DNA of 64,000 nt from Hadesarchaea archaeon (GCA_029259175.1 JAPDJH010000004.1:32001-96000); one strand, 5' to 3'; shown: positions 18,332 to 37,634, counted from the stretch's first letter. Numbers and translations: made by a program. The notes: a model not told the origin generated them from the sequence alone.

Positions 18332-18409
18332 GGGCCCGTAGCCTAGCCAGGATAGGGCGTCGGCCTTCTAAGCCGAAGGTCGTGGGTTCGAATCCCACCG
18401 GGCCCGCCA
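18332..18409 (+). tRNA. tRNA-Arg(TCT), intronless, CCA encoded
   Basis: Acceptor stem GGGCCCG/CGGGCCC, anticodon arm TCGGC-CTTCTAA-GCCGA, T arm GTGGG-TTCGAAT-CCCAC, 3' GCCA. Confidence 0.97.
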
Positions 18410-18566: not shown

Positions 18567-19382
18567 TCACAGCACCCACGTCTTGATTAGTGTGTACAGA
18601 CCGAGTGCGATTACCAACACACCTAGACCTGTTTTTATCCTCCGCTCAGATCTAAATTTAGCGGTAATGCGTGGCCCTACCCATCCTCCTACTGTCGCTC
18701 CAACGAGCAGAGGCATGAGTAAGTTGCTACTCGGTATGCCCTTTGTGAGCACGTAAGTGGCAAATCCGGTAAGACAGATGGGTATCTCAGACGAGGTGGT
18801 CGCCCCAATGGTCTCCTTCGACCTCCTGCCAGCGATCAGCTGGCCGGTGGTGACCACTGGACCAAACCCTCCGCCCGAAATTCCCTTGTTGAACGCGCTC
18901 AGAACGCCTACCCCGAAGATCTTCTTCCAAGAGAAGCCGAATACACTCCTCGAGAGCAGTACAACTCCCATGACGATAACCAGCACGCCTATGTAGGTCT
19001 TGAGCGCGGTCTTCGGGATACTCACGGCCGTTAGGGCCCCCACACACGTTGCCAGCACGCCAGCCGCTGAGATAATAAAGACCACTTTCAAATCCCTGCT
19101 TAGACTTCGCTTAAAAGTCTCGATGTACCCCAGCTCTGCCAGCCTCTGCCTAATATTTTTCTCTACCCTGTACTCCACATGCCCGAGCTTGTGATGTTTC
19201 ACACTCGCAATGAACCCTCCAATTGCCTGTGAGAGCAAGATGGAGGGAATAACTGCAACCGGATTGTATCCCGCAGTTATGAGGGCTGGTGATAGAATGG
19301 TCCCGTAAAGCATTCCTAGGGACGAGTCAATGATTTCGCACCCGCACGCCAGCGCCGCCAACAAAAGAAGGCCCGAATCCAT
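18567..19382 (-). CDS. TauE/SafE (TSUP) family membrane transporter
   Basis: EIIDSSLGMLYGT and FNKGISGGGFGP repeats, multi-TM; start moved to ATG 19382. Confidence 0.88.
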   Translation of the reverse strand: MDSGLLLLAALACGCEIIDSSLGMLYGTILSPALITAGYNPVAVIPSILLSQAIGGFIASVKHHKLGHVEYRVEKNIRQRLAELGYIETFKRSLSRDLKVVFIISAAGVLATCVGALTAVSIPKTALKTYIGVLVIVMGVVLLSRSVFGFSWKKIFGVGVLSAFNKGISGGGFGPVVTTGQLIAGRRSKETIGATTSSEIPICLTGFATYVLTKGIPSSNLLMPLLVGATVGGWVGPRITAKFRSERRIKTGLGVLVIALGLYTLIKTWVL

Positions 19383-19393
19383 TCTTTTACCCC

Positions 19394-20182
19394 TCAACTC
19401 TTGGTCCTTAGGAACTCTTTTTCCAGCACTCTGAAGACATCTTGAGGCTGCTCTATTTCCTCCTCCACGTTCACCGTGATGAGAACCGCTCGCTCGAGGT
19501 GGTCTCCCTTCAGCTCCCCGTAGGGAGTTCGCTTGGGGAGGGTCTGCACCTTGGCCTCGCCGAACGAGCAGAACCCGTGATCGGAAATCAAAATGAGCTT
19601 GTTGGTCTCGCTCGGCAGAAAGCCAGTATCCCACACGAGCTCCCCAATTTTCTCGTCTAGTTTTTTGTACCACTCTAGAACCACGGGTTCGCCCCAGTGG
19701 AAATGCTGAACTCTATCCAGCAGCGTGAACACCGAAATCAGAAGATCTGGCTTCCAAGTCAGCAGCTCCTTCGTTGTTTCGGTGACCCGCTCGAGTTCCT
19801 CCTCCCATTCCTTTTCGTTGCTGGGCAGGCCGAAACCCACCGGCCTGAAATCCACGTTGAAGGAGTAGGGCGGCACCACAAACGGGACGTTCAAAACTCG
19901 AACATCTATCTTGTCCTTCAAAATATCCCAGATGAACTTTACGGGGATATCTTCTCTTTTTACTATCTTGCCATCTTTTGTAAACTCCAAGTGTCCGTGC
20001 TCCTCAACGGTCTTTCCAGAAAACATCCCGCACCAGATCGCTGCAGAAATTGGTTTTTCTCTGAGCACGATTTCTTTTGCCTTCCCTGCTTGGATAAGCC
20101 TCGCAAAATTCTTCAAAACTTTTAGATTTGGGCGAATAACGTTCCAGCTTGCTCCGTCGATGCCTAAAACGAAAAACGTCAA
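19394..20182 (-). CDS. alkaline-phosphatase-superfamily protein (nucleotide pyrophosphatase/phosphodiesterase-like)
   Basis: LGIDGA, PISAAIW..MFSG, DRVQH, ISDHGF, GDH. Confidence 0.85.
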   Translation of the reverse strand: MTFFVLGIDGASWNVIRPNLKVLKNFARLIQAGKAKEIVLREKPISAAIWCGMFSGKTVEEHGHLEFTKDGKIVKREDIPVKFIWDILKDKIDVRVLNVPFVVPPYSFNVDFRPVGFGLPSNEKEWEEELERVTETTKELLTWKPDLLISVFTLLDRVQHFHWGEPVVLEWYKKLDEKIGELVWDTGFLPSETNKLILISDHGFCSFGEAKVQTLPKRTPYGELKGDHLERAVLITVNVEEEIEQPQDVFRVLEKEFLRTKS

Positions 20183-21405
20183 CTCGATACCTCCAAGGCC
20201 ACTCCTGCCCCGATATTTTTTCCATTTTTCATTATGACGAATCTACCAAGTTCTGGAATATCTGGATACCGCTCCACCACCATAGGTTCACGGAGAGATA
20301 GTACCATTAGTGCTGCTTCGTTTATGTCAACGACAGAGGGCTGTTTTTCAACAATCGCCCCGGTTTCTGTGTCGATTTTCTCAAGAATGTTCTGCACCCG
20401 CGCTGGCACGGCCGCAGTACCACACTTGACCACTATTGTTTCGTTCTTTCTCAGACGATCGAGCAGGAGAACCACTTCTCCTTTTATCTCTGTAACTTTT
20501 TTAGGTGGCGACTCCGCAAGACCGAACACTTCACCTCTCCGCGGAATTACGCTACTTATTACTCCCACGCACTCGCCTGGCTTGGCTTCGCTCCGCTCGC
20601 CTTCGTACACGCGGATTTGCTGAACTATTGCCGGTCTTCCCGAAGGCTCGAAAACCCCTTTCGCCCCTTTTCTCAGCACGCCGCTTTCCACTCGTCCAAC
20701 AACAATTTTTTCTCCATCCACCTCATACACGTCCTGCACAACAAATCTCAACGGTTTGTCCAATTCCCTGCTTTTTATCGGAATAGCATCCAGTGCCTCG
20801 ATCAGGGTCTTCTTCGCCCAAGGCATCTTAGTAGAGCGGCGGTAAACATTCTCTCCTTCTATGGCGGAGATCGGCACGAAACTTATCTTGTCCAAATCAA
20901 ACCCTAGGGAATCTAAAAATTCCTTCATCGCGTTGTGGATCCTTTCAAACGGTTCTTTTTGATATCTTACAGCATCCATCTTGTTTACGGCGACCACCAA
21001 GTGTTCGATTCCGAGTAGTTTGAGCAGAAACACGTGTCTGCGGGTCTGCTCCTCTATCCCTTCCTGCGCTGACACTATTACGATCGCCGCGTCTGCTTGA
21101 GAAGCACCAGTTAGCATGTTTTTGAGAAACTCTTTGTGACCTGGAGAGTCGATAATAGTGTAAAGACGATTCTTACCTTTGAAAAACACCCGTGTAGACT
21201 CTATGGTCATCTGTTCTTTTCGCTCTTCTTCGAGCGCATCTAGGAAATAAGCGAACTCGAATCTCCGTTTCAGCTCCTCAGCATATTTTTGAATCTCCTC
21301 TACACGATCGTCGGTGACACTCTCACCATCATATAGCAAGCGTCCTATAGTGGTGGATTTCCCGTGATCCACATGACCAACGAAAACCACGTTGACGCTC
21401 TCCAT
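20179..21405 (-). CDS. cysN: sulfate adenylyltransferase GTPase subunit (no fused APS kinase)
   Basis: GHVDHGKST, AYFLDALEEER, DSPGH, NMLTGASQAD, NKMD; adjacent to cysD. Confidence 0.88.
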   Translation of the reverse strand: MESVNVVFVGHVDHGKSTTIGRLLYDGESVTDDRVEEIQKYAEELKRRFEFAYFLDALEEERKEQMTIESTRVFFKGKNRLYTIIDSPGHKEFLKNMLTGASQADAAIVIVSAQEGIEEQTRRHVFLLKLLGIEHLVVAVNKMDAVRYQKEPFERIHNAMKEFLDSLGFDLDKISFVPISAIEGENVYRRSTKMPWAKKTLIEALDAIPIKSRELDKPLRFVVQDVYEVDGEKIVVGRVESGVLRKGAKGVFEPSGRPAIVQQIRVYEGERSEAKPGECVGVISSVIPRRGEVFGLAESPPKKVTEIKGEVVLLLDRLRKNETIVVKCGTAAVPARVQNILEKIDTETGAIVEKQPSVVDINEAALMVLSLREPMVVERYPDIPELGRFVIMKNGKNIGAGVALEVSS

Positions 21406-21416
21406 TACCGTCCCGC

Positions 21417-22229
21417 CTACATGTATCCAAGCGCCCGGAGTTTCTGCATCATGAAAGCCTGTTCTTTATCCTGTGCTCGTCCGGCCCGCTCAGCGGTTTT
21501 GGTTCGCTCCAATTCCTCAATGATCTTGTCAATCGTGTCGGCGTTAGAATCGATTGGATTCGTGCATGGCATGCAACCCAAACTTCTGTATCTCTTCCCG
21601 TTTCGAGCAAAATACATGGGGTTAACAGGGATGCCCTCACGTTTTATGTAGCGCCAAATATCGATCTCCCGCCAGTGGAGCATCGGGTGCACACGTGTGT
21701 GGGTGGCCTCTTCTGAGGCCTTTTCATACTGATCCCACATCTCCAACGGTTGATCGCGATAGTCCCATCGGAAGTTGGCATCGCGGAGGCTGAAATACCT
21801 CTCCTTTGCCCGGATACCGTGCTCGTCTCTTCGGATTGCCAAAAGGAGGGCATCGAATCCGTGTTTTTTCATTGCTATCTGAAGAGCCTGCGTTTTGAGA
21901 GCAGTACAACAAGCAAGCTTTCCCTTTTCGGGACCCATTCCACTCTTCAACGCCTCTTCGTTCCGAGCAATTATCAAATTTAGCCCCCATTTTCTCACCC
22001 ACTTGTCCCTGAACTCGTACATCTCTGGAAACTTCCGCCCCGTGTCAATATGGATGACCGGAAATGGCACTTTTCCATAGAAAGCCTTGCGACACAGCCA
22101 GAGGAGAGTGGTAGAGTCCTTTCCCATACTCCAGAGCATGGCTGGTTTCTTGAACTGCGCTTTTGCTTCCCTAATGATGTAGATACTCTGATTCTCGAGC
22201 TGATCTAGATAATCCCCCACGCACATCAC
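21417..22229 (-). CDS. cysD: sulfate adenylyltransferase subunit 2
   Basis: LENQSIYIIRE, WSMGKDS, HIDTG, RRDEHGIRAKER, YRSLGC, ERAGRAQD. Confidence 0.94.
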   Translation of the reverse strand: MMCVGDYLDQLENQSIYIIREAKAQFKKPAMLWSMGKDSTTLLWLCRKAFYGKVPFPVIHIDTGRKFPEMYEFRDKWVRKWGLNLIIARNEEALKSGMGPEKGKLACCTALKTQALQIAMKKHGFDALLLAIRRDEHGIRAKERYFSLRDANFRWDYRDQPLEMWDQYEKASEEATHTRVHPMLHWREIDIWRYIKREGIPVNPMYFARNGKRYRSLGCMPCTNPIDSNADTIDKIIEELERTKTAERAGRAQDKEQAFMMQKLRALGYM

Positions 22230-22450
22230 CTCAGATATCCCAGCGCCCGCAAGCGGCGTCTGATTTTTTCTGCATCTTCTCTGGCAAACGGCATCTCACC
22301 GCTTTCATGAGCTTCCACAAGCACTTCCCGTAGCAGATATCCCACATAACTGGAAACCGAAGGGAATCCGGTATTCTCTATCTGCTTTTTTATTTTCTCG
22401 AACAGCTGCACCGGAATAGATACGGTTGTGAATTTTTTCCTTCTCGGCAT
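22226..22450 (-). CDS. ribbon-helix-helix (CopG-like) protein with C-terminal RLRALGY
   Basis: TTVSIP beta-strand, GF.SVSSYV..LLRE helices; GTGA overlap with cysD. Confidence 0.85.
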   Translation of the reverse strand: MPRRKKFTTVSIPVQLFEKIKKQIENTGFPSVSSYVGYLLREVLVEAHESGEMPFAREDAEKIRRRLRALGYLR

Positions 22451-22464
22451 CTTCTCAATTTAAT

Positions 22465-22487
22465 TATATGTGATTACACTATAAAAA
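22465..22487 (-). promoter_or_regulatory. putative TATA box with overlapping imperfect inverted repeat
   Basis: Minus strand TTTTTATA about 30 nt before ATG 22450; TATAGTG-TAAT-CACATATA overlaps it. Confidence 0.4.
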
Positions 22488-22505
22488 TTCTCCCCATCTG
22501 GGAAA

Positions 22506-22709
22506 CTAGCGTAAATACCCAAGGGCTCGTAGTCTTTCCTTTATTTTTTCTTCATCCGTCGCTTTTTTTTCTATAGTTTTTTCAATGATTCTCCGAACAT
22601 ATTCTTCTACTGAACGAATGCCCTCATTTCTAGCGCGCATCTTCAGCTCTTCATATAAAAATTTTGGAACCTTTATCGTTATTACCATAGTTTTGTTTTT
22701 TCGAAACAT
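22506..22709 (-). CDS. second ribbon-helix-helix protein with C-terminal RLRALGY
   Basis: ITIKVP..LYEELK..A...G..SVEEYV; ends EEKIKERLRALGYLR. Confidence 0.75.
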   Translation of the reverse strand: MFRKNKTMVITIKVPKFLYEELKMRARNEGIRSVEEYVRRIIEKTIEKKATDEEKIKERLRALGYLR

Positions 22710-24376: not shown

Positions 24377-25258
24377 ATGAGAATATGTATCGTGGGTGGG
24401 GGCACCGTAGGAAGCGCGGTTGGTATGGGACTTGCAAAATTGGGACACGAAATAGTGTTTTATGATGTCGAAGAGCAAAAAACACGAGAGCTTAATAAAA
24501 AAGGATTTAGAGCTACCACAAACTTTGAAGAAGCTATTCAGAACACAAATATGTCGTTCATATGTGTTCCCACCCCCACTATCCGGGGAAAAATTTGTCT
24601 ATCTCACGTTAAGGACTCTATCAAAAAAATCGCCAATTTTCTGAAACATCATGATAAGTATTACCTCGTCGTCATTAAGAGCACAGTACTTCCAATGACA
24701 ACGGAAAAGGTTATAATTCCGCTCATAGAGAAGATTTCGAAAAAGAAAGTTGGTAAAGATTTTGGTGTGTGCGTAAATCCAGAATTTCTAACAGAGTCTC
24801 ACAAAAGTTGGACTAAAAACAGGCGTTTTGCAAGGGATTTTTTCAGCGAAGACAGGATAGTTATCGGTGAATCCGATAAAAAAGCGGGAAACGTTCTCGT
24901 ACGACTGTATAAACCACTGCGAATCCCTATCATTAGAACCGATTTGCGAACGGCAGAGACTATAAAATATGCTTGTAACTGTGCGCTAGCCTGCAGGATC
25001 TCCTATTGGAACGAAATATATTATGTGTGCAAAAACATTGGCGTAGACTCTCATTTTGTGGCTCGTGTAGCAGCCATGGACGAAAGAATAGGCGTCTATG
25101 GAACCGTGCATGGTAAGGCCTTCGGTGGAAAATGTTTGCCAAAAGATTTGAAAGCCTTTATAGCATTTTGTAAAGAGATCGGTTATAGACCACGACTCTT
25201 AGAGGCTGTCGACTTAATCAATGAAAAAATCAGAAAAGAAGAGGGGATAAGAGAGTGA
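24377..25258 (+). CDS. UDP-glucose/GDP-mannose dehydrogenase family, short form lacking the C-terminal domain
   Basis: GGGTVG, CVPTP, KSTVLP, NPEFL, AETIKY.CN, FGGKCLPKD; 293 aa. Confidence 0.88.
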   Translation: MRICIVGGGTVGSAVGMGLAKLGHEIVFYDVEEQKTRELNKKGFRATTNFEEAIQNTNMSFICVPTPTIRGKICLSHVKDSIKKIANFLKHHDKYYLVVIKSTVLPMTTEKVIIPLIEKISKKKVGKDFGVCVNPEFLTESHKSWTKNRRFARDFFSEDRIVIGESDKKAGNVLVRLYKPLRIPIIRTDLRTAETIKYACNCALACRISYWNEIYYVCKNIGVDSHFVARVAAMDERIGVYGTVHGKAFGGKCLPKDLKAFIAFCKEIGYRPRLLEAVDLINEKIRKEEGIRE

Positions 25259-31255: not shown

Positions 31256-32104
31256 CTATTCTACCTCAAACCAAGGTACTTCCAGAAGCGCTGGATGAGA
31301 ATAATCAAAAATGTGTCCGTAAAATCCATCTTCTCCTAAAAGCTCTCCGTGATCAGAGGTTATCACCGTTTTTCCAGGCAATTTTTTCACAAGTTTTGCG
31401 ATGTGTTTTAACACATTTTCTACTTCTCGGCGATATATTTCACGCAGTCCCTCTTGCCCATATTTTTTCGCAATTATTTCGATATACTGAAAATCCGCCA
31501 AACCTAGTTTTTTTCTAATTTTTATTGTAGTCACAGGGCCTAACACTCTACTCGCCAATCTGCCGAGCAACGCACGTAATTTAGTTATGCTTTGATAGGA
31601 TAAATCTTTCTTGAGCGAAGAATTCCAAGCGGGGGGGATGTAACCTAGAGTTAGATATGGCGTGTGGGGCTGCAAGTAATGCGCTATTATTTTTTTTCCA
31701 GGAAATTCCTTTTTCACTTGCAACACAGCCTCGTTCATAACTAATGGTGGAACCGTGTTATACTTCCGATCCCATCCATAATCCCACACGTCGATTATTT
31801 TGTAAAAATGCCCCACGGCATTGAATGCATCTTTGCTTCCCGCCGCGATCCCTTTAGAGTTAACATAAGGATGAGCCGAAACATAAACAACATTGGTCAA
31901 TCTTTTGTTGCCGAACAAAGCCTTAAGCCAGCCTTGGGTGTCCGAAGCTGGGGAGAGAACTTTCTTCAGCTTGCCACGCAAATATTTCTTATAGACAATT
32001 TCGAATACGTCGTATCTGCATGCATCAAGAATTATCAGGTTATCCCAATTAAACCGCATTATATGGGAGACTTGAGCCTCCATAGTGTTTATCCCTCCTA
32101 ACAT
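31256..32104 (-). CDS. AlkP/sulfatase-like core-domain protein
   Basis: LIILDACRYD, SPASDT..W, HYLQPHTPY, ITSDHGE, EVPW; true start may be a later Met. Confidence 0.85.
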   Translation of the reverse strand: MLGGINTMEAQVSHIMRFNWDNLIILDACRYDVFEIVYKKYLRGKLKKVLSPASDTQGWLKALFGNKRLTNVVYVSAHPYVNSKGIAAGSKDAFNAVGHFYKIIDVWDYGWDRKYNTVPPLVMNEAVLQVKKEFPGKKIIAHYLQPHTPYLTLGYIPPAWNSSLKKDLSYQSITKLRALLGRLASRVLGPVTTIKIRKKLGLADFQYIEIIAKKYGQEGLREIYRREVENVLKHIAKLVKKLPGKTVITSDHGELLGEDGFYGHIFDYSHPALLEVPWFEVE

Positions 32105-36677: not shown

Positions 36678-37634
36678 GTGATCGAAAGTCAGAAAAAACT
36701 TATCGATAAGTTAGACTGGGACCATCTCATTATCTTAGACGCTTGCAGATATGATATATTCTCCGAAATATATTGCGAGTATCTGAGTGGGCAGCTAAAA
36801 AAGGTAAAATCTGCTGGCTCGTGTACTCTCGAATGGCTCAAAAAAACATGGGGGGGCCGAAATTACAAGAATGTTGTATATATCTCAGCCAATCCTTACT
36901 GTAACTCCTCCGAAGTAAAGATATTTGGATTTCGAGCAAAGGACCACTTTCATAAAATAATTGATGTTTGGGACTTTGGGTGGGACACCGAAGTAAATAC
37001 TGTGCGGCCGGAGACCGTACTTAGAGAAACAAAGCGCGCCCTAGAGCAGTACCCTTCCAAGAAATTCGTGATTCATTATGCGCAGCCCCATCCTCCTTTT
37101 CTGAAGGGGTACGAACTCCAAGGAATCGGCATACTAGCAAATACCTTAATTAAAAAACTCAATCTCCTTCACTCCGGAGGCGCGGCTCAGGTGGGACTAC
37201 ACCAAACAAACATACGAGATGTTATTGGAGGGAAACTAATTAGAACTCTTGGATATGGTGTCACTGCTAAAATCAAGAATCTGTTAGGATTGCCCGCTGG
37301 GGCGGTCTGGGACGTGTGGTTCAGGTTTGGGCCCGATAAAGTGAAAGAATTCTACGAGGACAACTTGAGGAGAGCTCTTAAATGCGTTAAGAAATCTCTG
37401 AACTTTCTTGATGGAAAAATAATAATAACTTCTGATCACGGAGAAATCTTTCCGATAGAAATTGAAAAGTTGGATTCGCGAGTGAAAAAAGGATTTTTGC
37501 GAGCGAAATTAAGGCCGTATAAAACGATCGGCGAATTTTATACACCAGATGGGAAAAAGATGGTGTTCGGGCATCCAGCTAATGTACGAATCCCGGTTTT
37601 GAGAGAAGTACCATGGTTTCAAATGAAAGCGTAA
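36678..37634 (+). CDS. AlkP/sulfatase-like core-domain protein (paralog of 31256-32104)
   Basis: LIILDACRYD, SAGSCT.EW, HYAQPHPPF, TSDHGE, EVPW. Confidence 0.85.
   Translation: MIESQKKLIDKLDWDHLIILDACRYDIFSEIYCEYLSGQLKKVKSAGSCTLEWLKKTWGGRNYKNVVYISANPYCNSSEVKIFGFRAKDHFHKIIDVWDFGWDTEVNTVRPETVLRETKRALEQYPSKKFVIHYAQPHPPFLKGYELQGIGILANTLIKKLNLLHSGGAAQVGLHQTNIRDVIGGKLIRTLGYGVTAKIKNLLGLPAGAVWDVWFRFGPDKVKEFYEDNLRRALKCVKKSLNFLDGKIIITSDHGEIFPIEIEKLDSRVKKGFLRAKLRPYKTIGEFYTPDGKKMVFGHPANVRIPVLREVPWFQMKA

Follow-up and report, generated by a model that had tools for sequence, protein, structure and literature searches.

An LGY-capped C-terminal helix on ribbon-helix-helix leaders of archaeal sulfate-activation operons and its possible docking to AlkP-superfamily enzymes

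In a 64-kb stretch of DNA from a Hadesarchaea archaeon (GCA_029259175.1, JAPDJH010000004.1:32001-96000; here called the window, all coordinates being positions within it), a small sulfate module encodes four proteins that carry a related RLxxLGY peptide: the ribbon-helix-helix (RHH) proteins RHH1 and RHH2, the sulfate adenylyltransferase subunit CysD and a TauE/SafE-family membrane protein (TauE). An earlier note on this DNA had proposed that the peptide is an interaction tag supplied in trans to AlkP-fold enzymes that lack it. Judged by its conservation, the RLRALGY peptide is no chance occurrence: it forms the core of a C-terminal module that spans ~22 residues and is portable between proteins. 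We tentatively read this LGY module as a docking helix for a groove of AlkP-superfamily enzymes, an interpretation that is based on complex modelling of the RHH1 tail and that we hold with a little less than even confidence. RHH1 itself is the leader gene and probable autoregulator of an RHH1-cysD-cysN-like-alkP-tauE operon.

The sequence contains the four peptides exactly as the note had given them: CysD ends MQKLRALGYM, RHH1 ends EKIRRRLRALGYLR, RHH2 ends EKIKERLRALGYLR, and residues 75-88 of TauE (19119-19160) read KNIRQRLAELGYIE, with RLAELGYIE in a loop insertion. The codons of the four copies differ, which therefore speaks for conservation at the protein level and not for recent DNA duplication; RHH1 and RHH2 are paralogs with 39% identity, and the peptide thus has three independent bearers, not four. 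For the chance test, a greedy whole-genome set of open reading frames (ORFs) from the source genome (1.3 Mb, an estimated 91% complete; 1505 ORFs, 401,320 residues) was compared with 200 per-protein shuffles. The strict motif [RK]L[RAKE][AE]LGY[ILM] occurs five times against a shuffle mean of 0.01 (maximum 1), with four of the five copies falling in this 4.1-kb cluster and the fifth internal to a 400-residue GTPase-like ORF on a different contig. The loose core L..LGY is ~3-fold over-represented genome-wide (25 against 8.5 expected). The bearers lie in a tight row of six genes on the minus strand (18567-22709), which is laid out as follows:

22506-22709, minus strand: RHH2, ribbon-helix-helix protein of 67 residues; tail at about 22509-22556
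between RHH2 and RHH1: spacer of 55 nt
22461-22487, minus strand: RHH1 promoter region, with TATA-like box and operator
22226-22450, minus strand: RHH1, 74 residues, operon leader; tail is residues 55-74 (22229-22288)
21417-22229, minus strand: CysD (sulfate adenylyltransferase subunit 2), short archaeal type; tail KLRALGYM at 21420-21446
20179-21405, minus strand: CysN-like GTPase (EF-1-alpha/CysN family), without tail; Pfam GTP_EFTU, E 6.7e-51
19394-20182, minus strand: AlkP1, short AlkP-superfamily enzyme of 262 residues, Phosphodiest (PF01663), tail-less
18567-19382, minus strand: TauE/SafE-family membrane protein (PF01925)
18332-18409, plus strand: tRNA-Arg (TCT), by ARAGORN; Rfam tRNA 72 bits

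The module opens with a flexible acidic linker, followed by a conserved Phe, by an amphipathic helix of the pattern [VI]K.RL[RK].L and by a Gly-Tyr cap placed 0-2 residues from the end, and the RHH1-family consensus over ~22 residues reads (P/A)F(S/T)KEDEE(K/R)VKxRLRALGY(L/I)(D/E/G). Within the window, RHH1 and RHH2 exhibit the full module, while CysD and TauE have a core of 7-8 residues only. At E up to 0.001, 448 homologs of RHH1 were found; among the matches listed, all 120 of 120 end in L..LGY plus 0-2 residues, with RL[RK]xLGY present in 112. A full-library search with RHH2 returned a more diverse set, of which 41 of 45 hits end in the same way: here the L, L, G and Y of the tail are the sole invariant columns of the whole protein, so that the tail is better conserved than the RHH domain. 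When a 22-residue tail profile was run against the source genome, it retrieved only RHH1 (E 9e-10) and RHH2 (E 1.6e-8), with CysD as a partial match of 7 bits; across five complete chromosomes it gave only eight hits, namely six ORFs of RHH size, one AlkP enzyme and one adenosine 5'-phosphosulfate (APS) kinase (E 0.006). Searched against the PDB, the tail profile found no significant match (best E 1.7) and the RHH family profile only NikR RHH domains, which lack a tail. In the AlphaFold2 (AF2) monomer model of RHH1 the tail forms a short amphipathic helix on a flexible linker, with a predicted local distance difference test score (pLDDT) of 64-75. Some proteins bear two tails in tandem (P0141, P0144). 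Leaders of 214-246 residues were also seen in three operons of the ATP sulfurylase Sat (L125:4136-4873, L126:2507-3214 and L127:3028-3672), built in three parts: an N-terminal RHH domain of RHH_10/DUF7557 type, an unassigned middle of ~100 residues and an RHH1-type domain at the C-terminus that bears the tail.

The earlier note had described an RLxxLGY tail as a common feature of AlkP- and sulfatase-type proteins, and its presence there is borne out: in the genomes opened, five such proteins end in the full module, four of them of Phosphodiest type (one by a weak match only) and one a Sulfatase. The AlkP hit in the five complete chromosomes is a Phosphodiest enzyme of 522 residues. Among 201 Bathyarchaeia genomes the tail profile has a hit in 44; the seven hits in frames of more than 200 residues were all opened, six hits in frames of 100-135 residues being left out of this census, and they comprise three Phosphodiest proteins, one Sulfatase-family protein and three multi-domain RHH proteins. 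All four of these AlkP-superfamily hits lie in glycosyltransferase loci. The converse arrangement, a tail-less AlkP beside a tagged partner, also recurs across genomes as the note had expected, since 33 of 33 AlkP genes beside RHH genes lack the tail. A Phosphodiest gene is present in 43 of the 44 tail-positive and in 78 of the 157 tail-negative Bathyarchaeia genomes, and it lies within 5 kb of the tail in at least 22 of the 44 (a hand count among the matches listed). These are related, metagenome-assembled genomes (MAGs), and much of the link comes from membership in one operon: the co-occurrence is consistent with docking and is no independent proof of it. The AlkP proteins of 510-530 residues near RHH genes at L024, L050, L054, L035 and L052 end in a Lys-rich amphipathic helix (e.g. 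...KIKKLKELKKI or ...KLKKLGKI); such ends resemble a degenerate tail and score below 0 bits with the tail profile.

Three proteins of the window had been put forward as tail-less and of AlkP fold. For AlkP1 (19394-20182) this holds, its sequence ending ...EFLRTKS, and no L..LGY occurs in the frames of 31256-32104 and 36678-37634 either; for these latter two the fold is plausible, not established. ORF 31256-32104 has weak matches to an STM4013-family hydrolase (E 1.2e-6) and to Sulfatase (E 0.015), and ORF 36678-37634 has a weak PglZ match (E 0.052) and an SDHG motif. A related genus of the same phylum exhibits the row RHH2-RHH1-cysD-GTPase-short AlkP together with an AlkP-like protein of 325 residues in a glycan locus, and this protein ends DEEEEIKKRLKDLGYFD. 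It was considered as an ortholog of ORFs 36678 and 31256 and dropped, as there is no significant similarity beyond the SDHG motif; the pair is thus not a clean case of tail loss.

In order to model the contact, AlkP1 (19-row alignment) was combined with residues 40-74 of RHH1 (30-row alignment) in three runs. The predicted complex reached an ipSAE interface score of 0.64 (median of the three runs), the best of three controls reaching 0.02; of 80 solved complexes 58 attain this mark, as do 2 of 110 mismatched pairs, counts that are only approximate here since the alignments were our own. At least 73% of contacts recur between the runs, and the partner has a pLDDT of 61. The predicted interface on RHH1 comprises F55, D59, A60, K62-R64 and R66-L73, and thus includes F55, I63, L67, L70, G71, Y72 and L73; of the six columns that are invariant or nearly so in the tail alignment, five (F55, L67, L70, G71 and Y72) are predicted contacts. 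On AlkP1 the predicted groove is lined by residues 65-67, 70, 72, 102-103, 115-116, 118, 120, 156, 214-215 and 218-220 and is mostly hydrophobic (F66, I72, V102, P103, F116, L118, R156, L214, P215), a character kept in relatives. Since no solved chain matches the tail profile, recall of a similar complex by the model is not evident. The note's idea of docking in trans is thereby supported in part, in silico and for the RHH tail only. In the mechanism that we propose, the docking helix would lie in a hydrophobic groove of an AlkP-superfamily enzyme: on some enzymes it would be supplied in cis, and here the RHH regulator would provide it in trans to the tail-less AlkP of its operon, such that the repressor would be physically coupled to an enzyme of the pathway under its control. 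Binding of the tail to AlkP may in turn alter repression or enzyme activity.

The role of RHH1 as regulator is suggested by what lies upstream of it. An operator, TAATCA-N4-TAATTA, occupies 22461-22476, 10 nt before the RHH1 start, and sits between that start and a TATA-like box, TTTTTATA, at 22480-22487. It is the single site of the type TAATTA-N4-TAATTA in the 64-kb window at up to one mismatch, and none precedes RHH2. Scanned at the same tolerance within 120 nt upstream of gene starts, the operator is found before 61 of 75 RHH genes and before 20 of 775 other genes of the same loci; 40 of the 75 upstream regions hold arrays of 2-5 overlapping sites at 10-bp spacing. The operator is common to loci from Thermoplasmata, Bathyarchaeia, Hadarchaeota, Asgard archaea and some bacterial MAGs, and its conservation before RHH genes makes it very likely that RHH1 is a DNA-binding autoregulator of its operon.

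These arrays also bear on a different function for the tail. It could be a self-association helix that joins DNA-bound RHH dimers on TAATTA arrays, as in tetramers of the Mnt/Arc type, giving cooperative repression, and that dimerises the AlkP enzymes on which it occurs; no contact between RHH protein and enzyme would then be needed. At 10-bp spacing, neighbouring dimers would line up along the same side of the DNA helix; the tail in the monomer model is short, amphipathic and flexibly linked, and proteins with tandem tails or several RHH domains occur. We nevertheless regard self-association as unlikely: it leaves unexplained why the module stands at the end of two AlkP-superfamily families and of almost nothing else, and why AlkP next to RHH is always tail-less, and the complex model sets the tail on AlkP1 far above the controls. 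A helix of ~13 residues is, moreover, short for an autonomous coiled coil.

Several observations weigh against docking as the function of the module. The tail is equally invariant in 26 Sat operons that encode a sulfotransferase of 192 residues and no AlkP; the receptor there would have to be an AlkP-superfamily protein encoded elsewhere in the genome, or a different protein. Distal Phosphodiest or Sulfatase genes do occur in two complete genomes of the sulfotransferase type; the complete genome G069 has only a sulfatase-family gene, ~70 kb away. AlkP-superfamily genes are common in any case, as all five complete genomes with a tailed RHH have one and so do 11 of 14 control genomes, and testing for AlkP absence therefore does not discriminate. 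The AlkP1 alignment is shallow (19 rows, five of them close), and among the five close homologs the contact positions are barely above average in conservation (0.68 against 0.64). The truncated AlkP1 core (262 against ~458 residues) may expose a groove open to any amphipathic helix. Operators of 2-5 half-sites at 10-bp spacing would also suit a tail that serves cooperativity between dimers, and the AlkP1-RHH1 contact is itself a prediction.

The wider family was surveyed with one genome per species, which gave 236 related loci, of which the best 80 (L001-L080) were studied. An RHH ORF is found in 79 of these, with 82 ORFs in total and a tail on 82 of 82; the module thereby marks out a widespread RHH family of archaea. 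A sulfate-related gene lies within -3 to +4 genes of the RHH gene in 74 of the 79 loci, and Sat or CysD/CysN is near it in 67. The gene directly after the RHH gene is Sat in 51 loci, followed downstream by a DHH phosphoesterase (46), APS kinase (46) and either AlkP/Phosphodiest or the 192-residue sulfotransferase, so that the dominant order among the 79 loci is RHH-Sat-DHH-(AlkP or sulfotransferase)-APS kinase; cysD follows the RHH gene in 11 loci, with the GTPase gene in 9 of them. Five loci lack a sulfate neighbour: L046 and L053 end right after the RHH gene, L074 ends one gene later, L020 has a weak sulfotransferase match after it and L010 has a different context. The tail-bearing RHH gene and its operon were also seen on contigs labelled as Chloroflexota/Dehalococcoidia, Actinomycetota and Gammaproteobacteria MAGs (L011, L023, L038, L049, L068), either through transfer or through binning error.

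Across 41 operons with Sat and APS kinase, 26 encode the sulfotransferase without AlkP, 14 AlkP without the sulfotransferase, none both and one neither. As the two are mutually exclusive and share an operon slot, AlkP may stand in for the sulfotransferase. No APS kinase was found in the source genome (91% complete), in which PF01583 gives only two partial P-loop matches of 20-23 bits; CysD and the GTPase may therefore supply APS, and not 3'-phosphoadenosine 5'-phosphosulfate (PAPS), to the enzyme that acts after them, perhaps the short AlkP. The exclusive use of one enzyme or the other would also suit a tail that acts as a sensor, binding APS, PAPS or 3'-phosphoadenosine 5'-phosphate (pAp) through its Arg/Lys residues and Tyr, or having its Tyr modified (e.g. 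sulfated) by the transferase of the operon, and in this way reporting flux to the repressor. Such a role would fit the invariance of the Tyr, the Gly and the basic residues, and the poor order of the CysD C-terminal region (pLDDT 50-63 in the AF2 model, and 204 of 325 residues in the 1zun_A coordinates) would suit a lid over a nucleotide site. We consider it very unlikely all the same: a lone helix of 13 residues is an improbable nucleotide site, and the same tail on AlkP enzymes is left unexplained. Basic residues next to a Tyr are also unlike known tyrosine-sulfation sites.

The CysD tail aligns to the C-terminal ...KKRQGY of the 1ZUN chain A sequence (P. syringae). Among the closest CysD homologs 118 of 120 end in L..LGYx and 119 of 120 have a terminal GY plus one hydrophobic residue, while the longer bacterial-type CysD beside the same RHH family (3 of 11) ends in RKKEGYF. 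The poorly scored part of the CysD AF2 monomer is the last ~28 residues, and the tail is thus not confidently packed on CysD in that model; the 1zun_A coordinates give no secure tail position, and the parts of the 1ZUN literature covered say nothing on where it lies. A large portion of the protein is thus not seen in 1ZUN, the only structure of a CysD-CysN pair, and it possibly includes the conserved CysD C-terminal tail. The motif of TauE lies in an insertion of 20 residues between transmembrane helices 2 and 3, which is absent from 9 of 9 TauE proteins of other RHH loci and is kept in its own subfamily, bacterial members included (L..LGY in 73 of 120, the Gly in 112 of 120). Of 49 APS kinases of RHH operons, 17 end in LGY; the others have unrelated helix ends (RRGLIE, ERDVI etc.). 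Homology between the C-terminal half of the RHH proteins and the CysD C-terminus was considered and rejected, as the profile matches of ~8-10 bits rest on the last 8 residues; genome matches to CysD at E 1e-5 in an RHH2-like profile search were set aside too, resting on the same short core only. At the sequence level, then, CysD, TauE and APS kinase share only the helix-cap core with the RHH tail, and the CysD and TauE cores are kept within their own subfamilies.

It could be argued that the peptides have no common function at all, being features of unrelated families that happen to use a generic helix C-cap (hydrophobic, x, x, L, G, aromatic). The over-represented loose core, the minority of APS kinases with LGY, the apparent ancestry of the tail within CysD (bacterial-type copies ending GYF), the TauE loop of a subfamily with bacterial members and the matching of RHH profiles to CysD over its last 8 residues alone all point in this direction. 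For the set as a whole we think this improbable, given the excess and clustering of the strict motif (four of the five copies within 4 kb) and the recurrence of the full 22-residue module, beyond the cap, on RHH and AlkP-superfamily proteins. The absence of a common function probably holds for TauE and perhaps for CysD, and it fails for the RHH/AlkP module; the resemblance that would place CysD and TauE in one code with the RHH tail could be a coincidence of a common helix cap.

A far-reaching extension of the docking interpretation is that the LGY tail is a docking code for the whole pathway. A groove on the AlkP-superfamily enzymes of sulfuryl/phosphoryl transfer would then be taken in turn by the cis tail, the CysD tail and the RHH tails; CysD would channel APS to an APS-using AlkP, and free repressor would read out unoccupied enzyme and so set transcription of the operon. 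If true, this would yield a metabolon and its feedback regulator from one short peptide, although we rate it as quite unlikely.

RHH antitoxins (FitA, RelB, ParD, CcdA) are the nearest analogy for the docking proposal: their operons are autoregulated, and their N-terminal RHH domain is joined to a flexible tail at the C-terminus, through which they bind the product of the downstream gene. The likeness extends to the best Pfam and NCBIfam matches of RHH2, which are a FitA-like RHH and a RelB-like antitoxin, both below curated cut-offs. The present system differs in that its predicted partner is an AlkP-fold enzyme of a metabolic operon and in that the tail is also fused to enzymes. Identity as a type II antitoxin was rejected, since no toxin gene is adjacent: the downstream genes are cysD, the GTPase gene, AlkP and TauE, and the 74 of 79 related loci with sulfate-pathway neighbours say the same. 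Small RHH repressors of the Mnt/Arc type form higher-order assemblies on tandem operators by means of a C-terminal helix; tandem sites occur here as well, but the tail is shorter, follows an acidic linker and is common to enzymes. The MIM1 motif of ESCRT-III, which binds MIT domains, likewise has a C-terminal acidic stretch and an amphipathic helix with the spacing hydrophobic-xx-RL-xx-L. This likeness is one of form only, as the Gly-Tyr cap is not part of MIM1, and a MIM1/MIT reading was discarded because no MIT domain (PF04212) was found in the 91%-complete source genome at E up to 0.1. Docking to the proteasome through an HbYX motif was discarded also: in the RHH tails the next-to-last residue is not the Tyr (RHH1 and RHH2 end GYLR, most of the family GYLD or GYID), and in CysD, which ends GYM, a Gly precedes the Tyr. 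As for ATP sulfurylases, the solved protein of the CysD-CysN complex 1ZUN ends ...KKRQGY, whereas the short archaeal subfamily ends KLRALGYM and so resembles the core of the RHH tail.

The gene cluster itself has been published. A cluster of copG, ATP sulfurylase, DHH pApase, type I phosphodiesterase and APS kinase with a nearby TauE is described from Thermococcales (Pyrococcus yayanosii) and other archaea, with copG as a putative pathway regulator (Jin et al. 2021, PMC8268124). From the parts of that paper covered, the same RHH family heads the same kind of operon there; the window differs in its CysD/CysN-type sulfurylase, its short AlkP of 262 residues, its two RHH genes and the lack of a detected APS kinase in the genome. 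Those parts make no mention of a tail module, an operator or a contact between RHH protein and enzyme, and neither the tail module nor the operator nor the predicted pairing was found described in the literature, supplements aside. Agl7 of Haloferax was considered as a known AlkP-type sulfation enzyme and dropped, as the portion of the literature covered describes its role but not its family.

The remaining assignments in the row differ in firmness. RHH2 matches the FitA-like RHH family (PF22513) at E 5.6e-6 with 26.7 bits, just below the cut-off of 27. RHH1 has no Pfam match at E 0.01, its family profile matches the RHH domain of a NikR structure at E 0.012, and database sources label homologs as 'CopG family' or 'Arc/MetJ-type RHH'. 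In the RHH1 AF2 monomer, helices 14-24 and 32-49 follow an extended N-terminus, with a tail helix at 57-69; the strand is not called. This two-helix model and the palindromic operator upstream of family genes argue for a ribbon-helix-helix fold. The RHH1 stop and the cysD start overlap (TGATG). CysD scores 348 bits with NF003587 (cut-off 195) and 277 bits with TIGR02039, under its cut-off of 397; it matches 1ZUN chain A at E 9.9e-69, and the PP-loop residues G35, K36, D37 and S38 are invariant in its alignment. The GTPase at 20179-21405 stays under the CysN cut-offs (TIGR02034, 286.6 bits against 336.1; NF003478, 288 bits against 590) and has EF-1-alpha as its top match, with 403.6 bits against a cut-off of 502; it is named CysN-like because it adjoins cysD, as in 9 related loci. 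AlkP1 exceeds the Phosphodiest cut-off (PF01663, 51 bits against 23); its metal-site columns D8, D155, H159, D200 and H201 are invariant across 19 aligned sequences, and Ser45 occupies the position of the consensus Thr. Its close homologs adjoin an RHH or cysD gene in 4 of 4 cases, and further homologs were found in 1 of 301 Bathyarchaeia genomes at E 1e-10. TauE scores 91.8 bits with PF01925 (cut-off 32.6).

The sulfate module adjoins the tRNA-Arg gene (18332-18409), near which collinear DNA similarity to three same-genus genomes stops, with one weak match beyond it at 24835-24974; the RHH pair, the sulfate module and the glycan island beyond the tRNA were not found in these three genomes. 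The following 22-60 kb form a low-GC island of glycan synthesis (GC about 0.40 against 0.55) with glycosyltransferases, NeuB-type nonulosonic acid synthesis, aminotransferases and a flippase. An AglB/STT3-like gene flanks this island, and the region 18410-60000 looks like a tRNA-flanked variable island. The end of similarity at the tRNA together with the low-GC glycan island indicates that the sulfate module is part of a variable surface-glycan region and was probably acquired.

Docking peptides common to a transcription factor and to enzymes of its pathway are well known in eukaryotes and hardly described in archaea. The operator and the leader RHH family allow regulon prediction in Thermoplasmata, Bathyarchaeia, Hadarchaeota, Asgard archaea and some Chloroflexota MAGs. 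Binding of the tail by AlkP-fold enzymes, if real, would provide a simple, testable mechanism for the control of archaeal sulfate activation and glycan sulfation, a handle on the role of the AlkP that occupies the place of the sulfotransferase in these operons, and a ready-made pair of peptide and groove.

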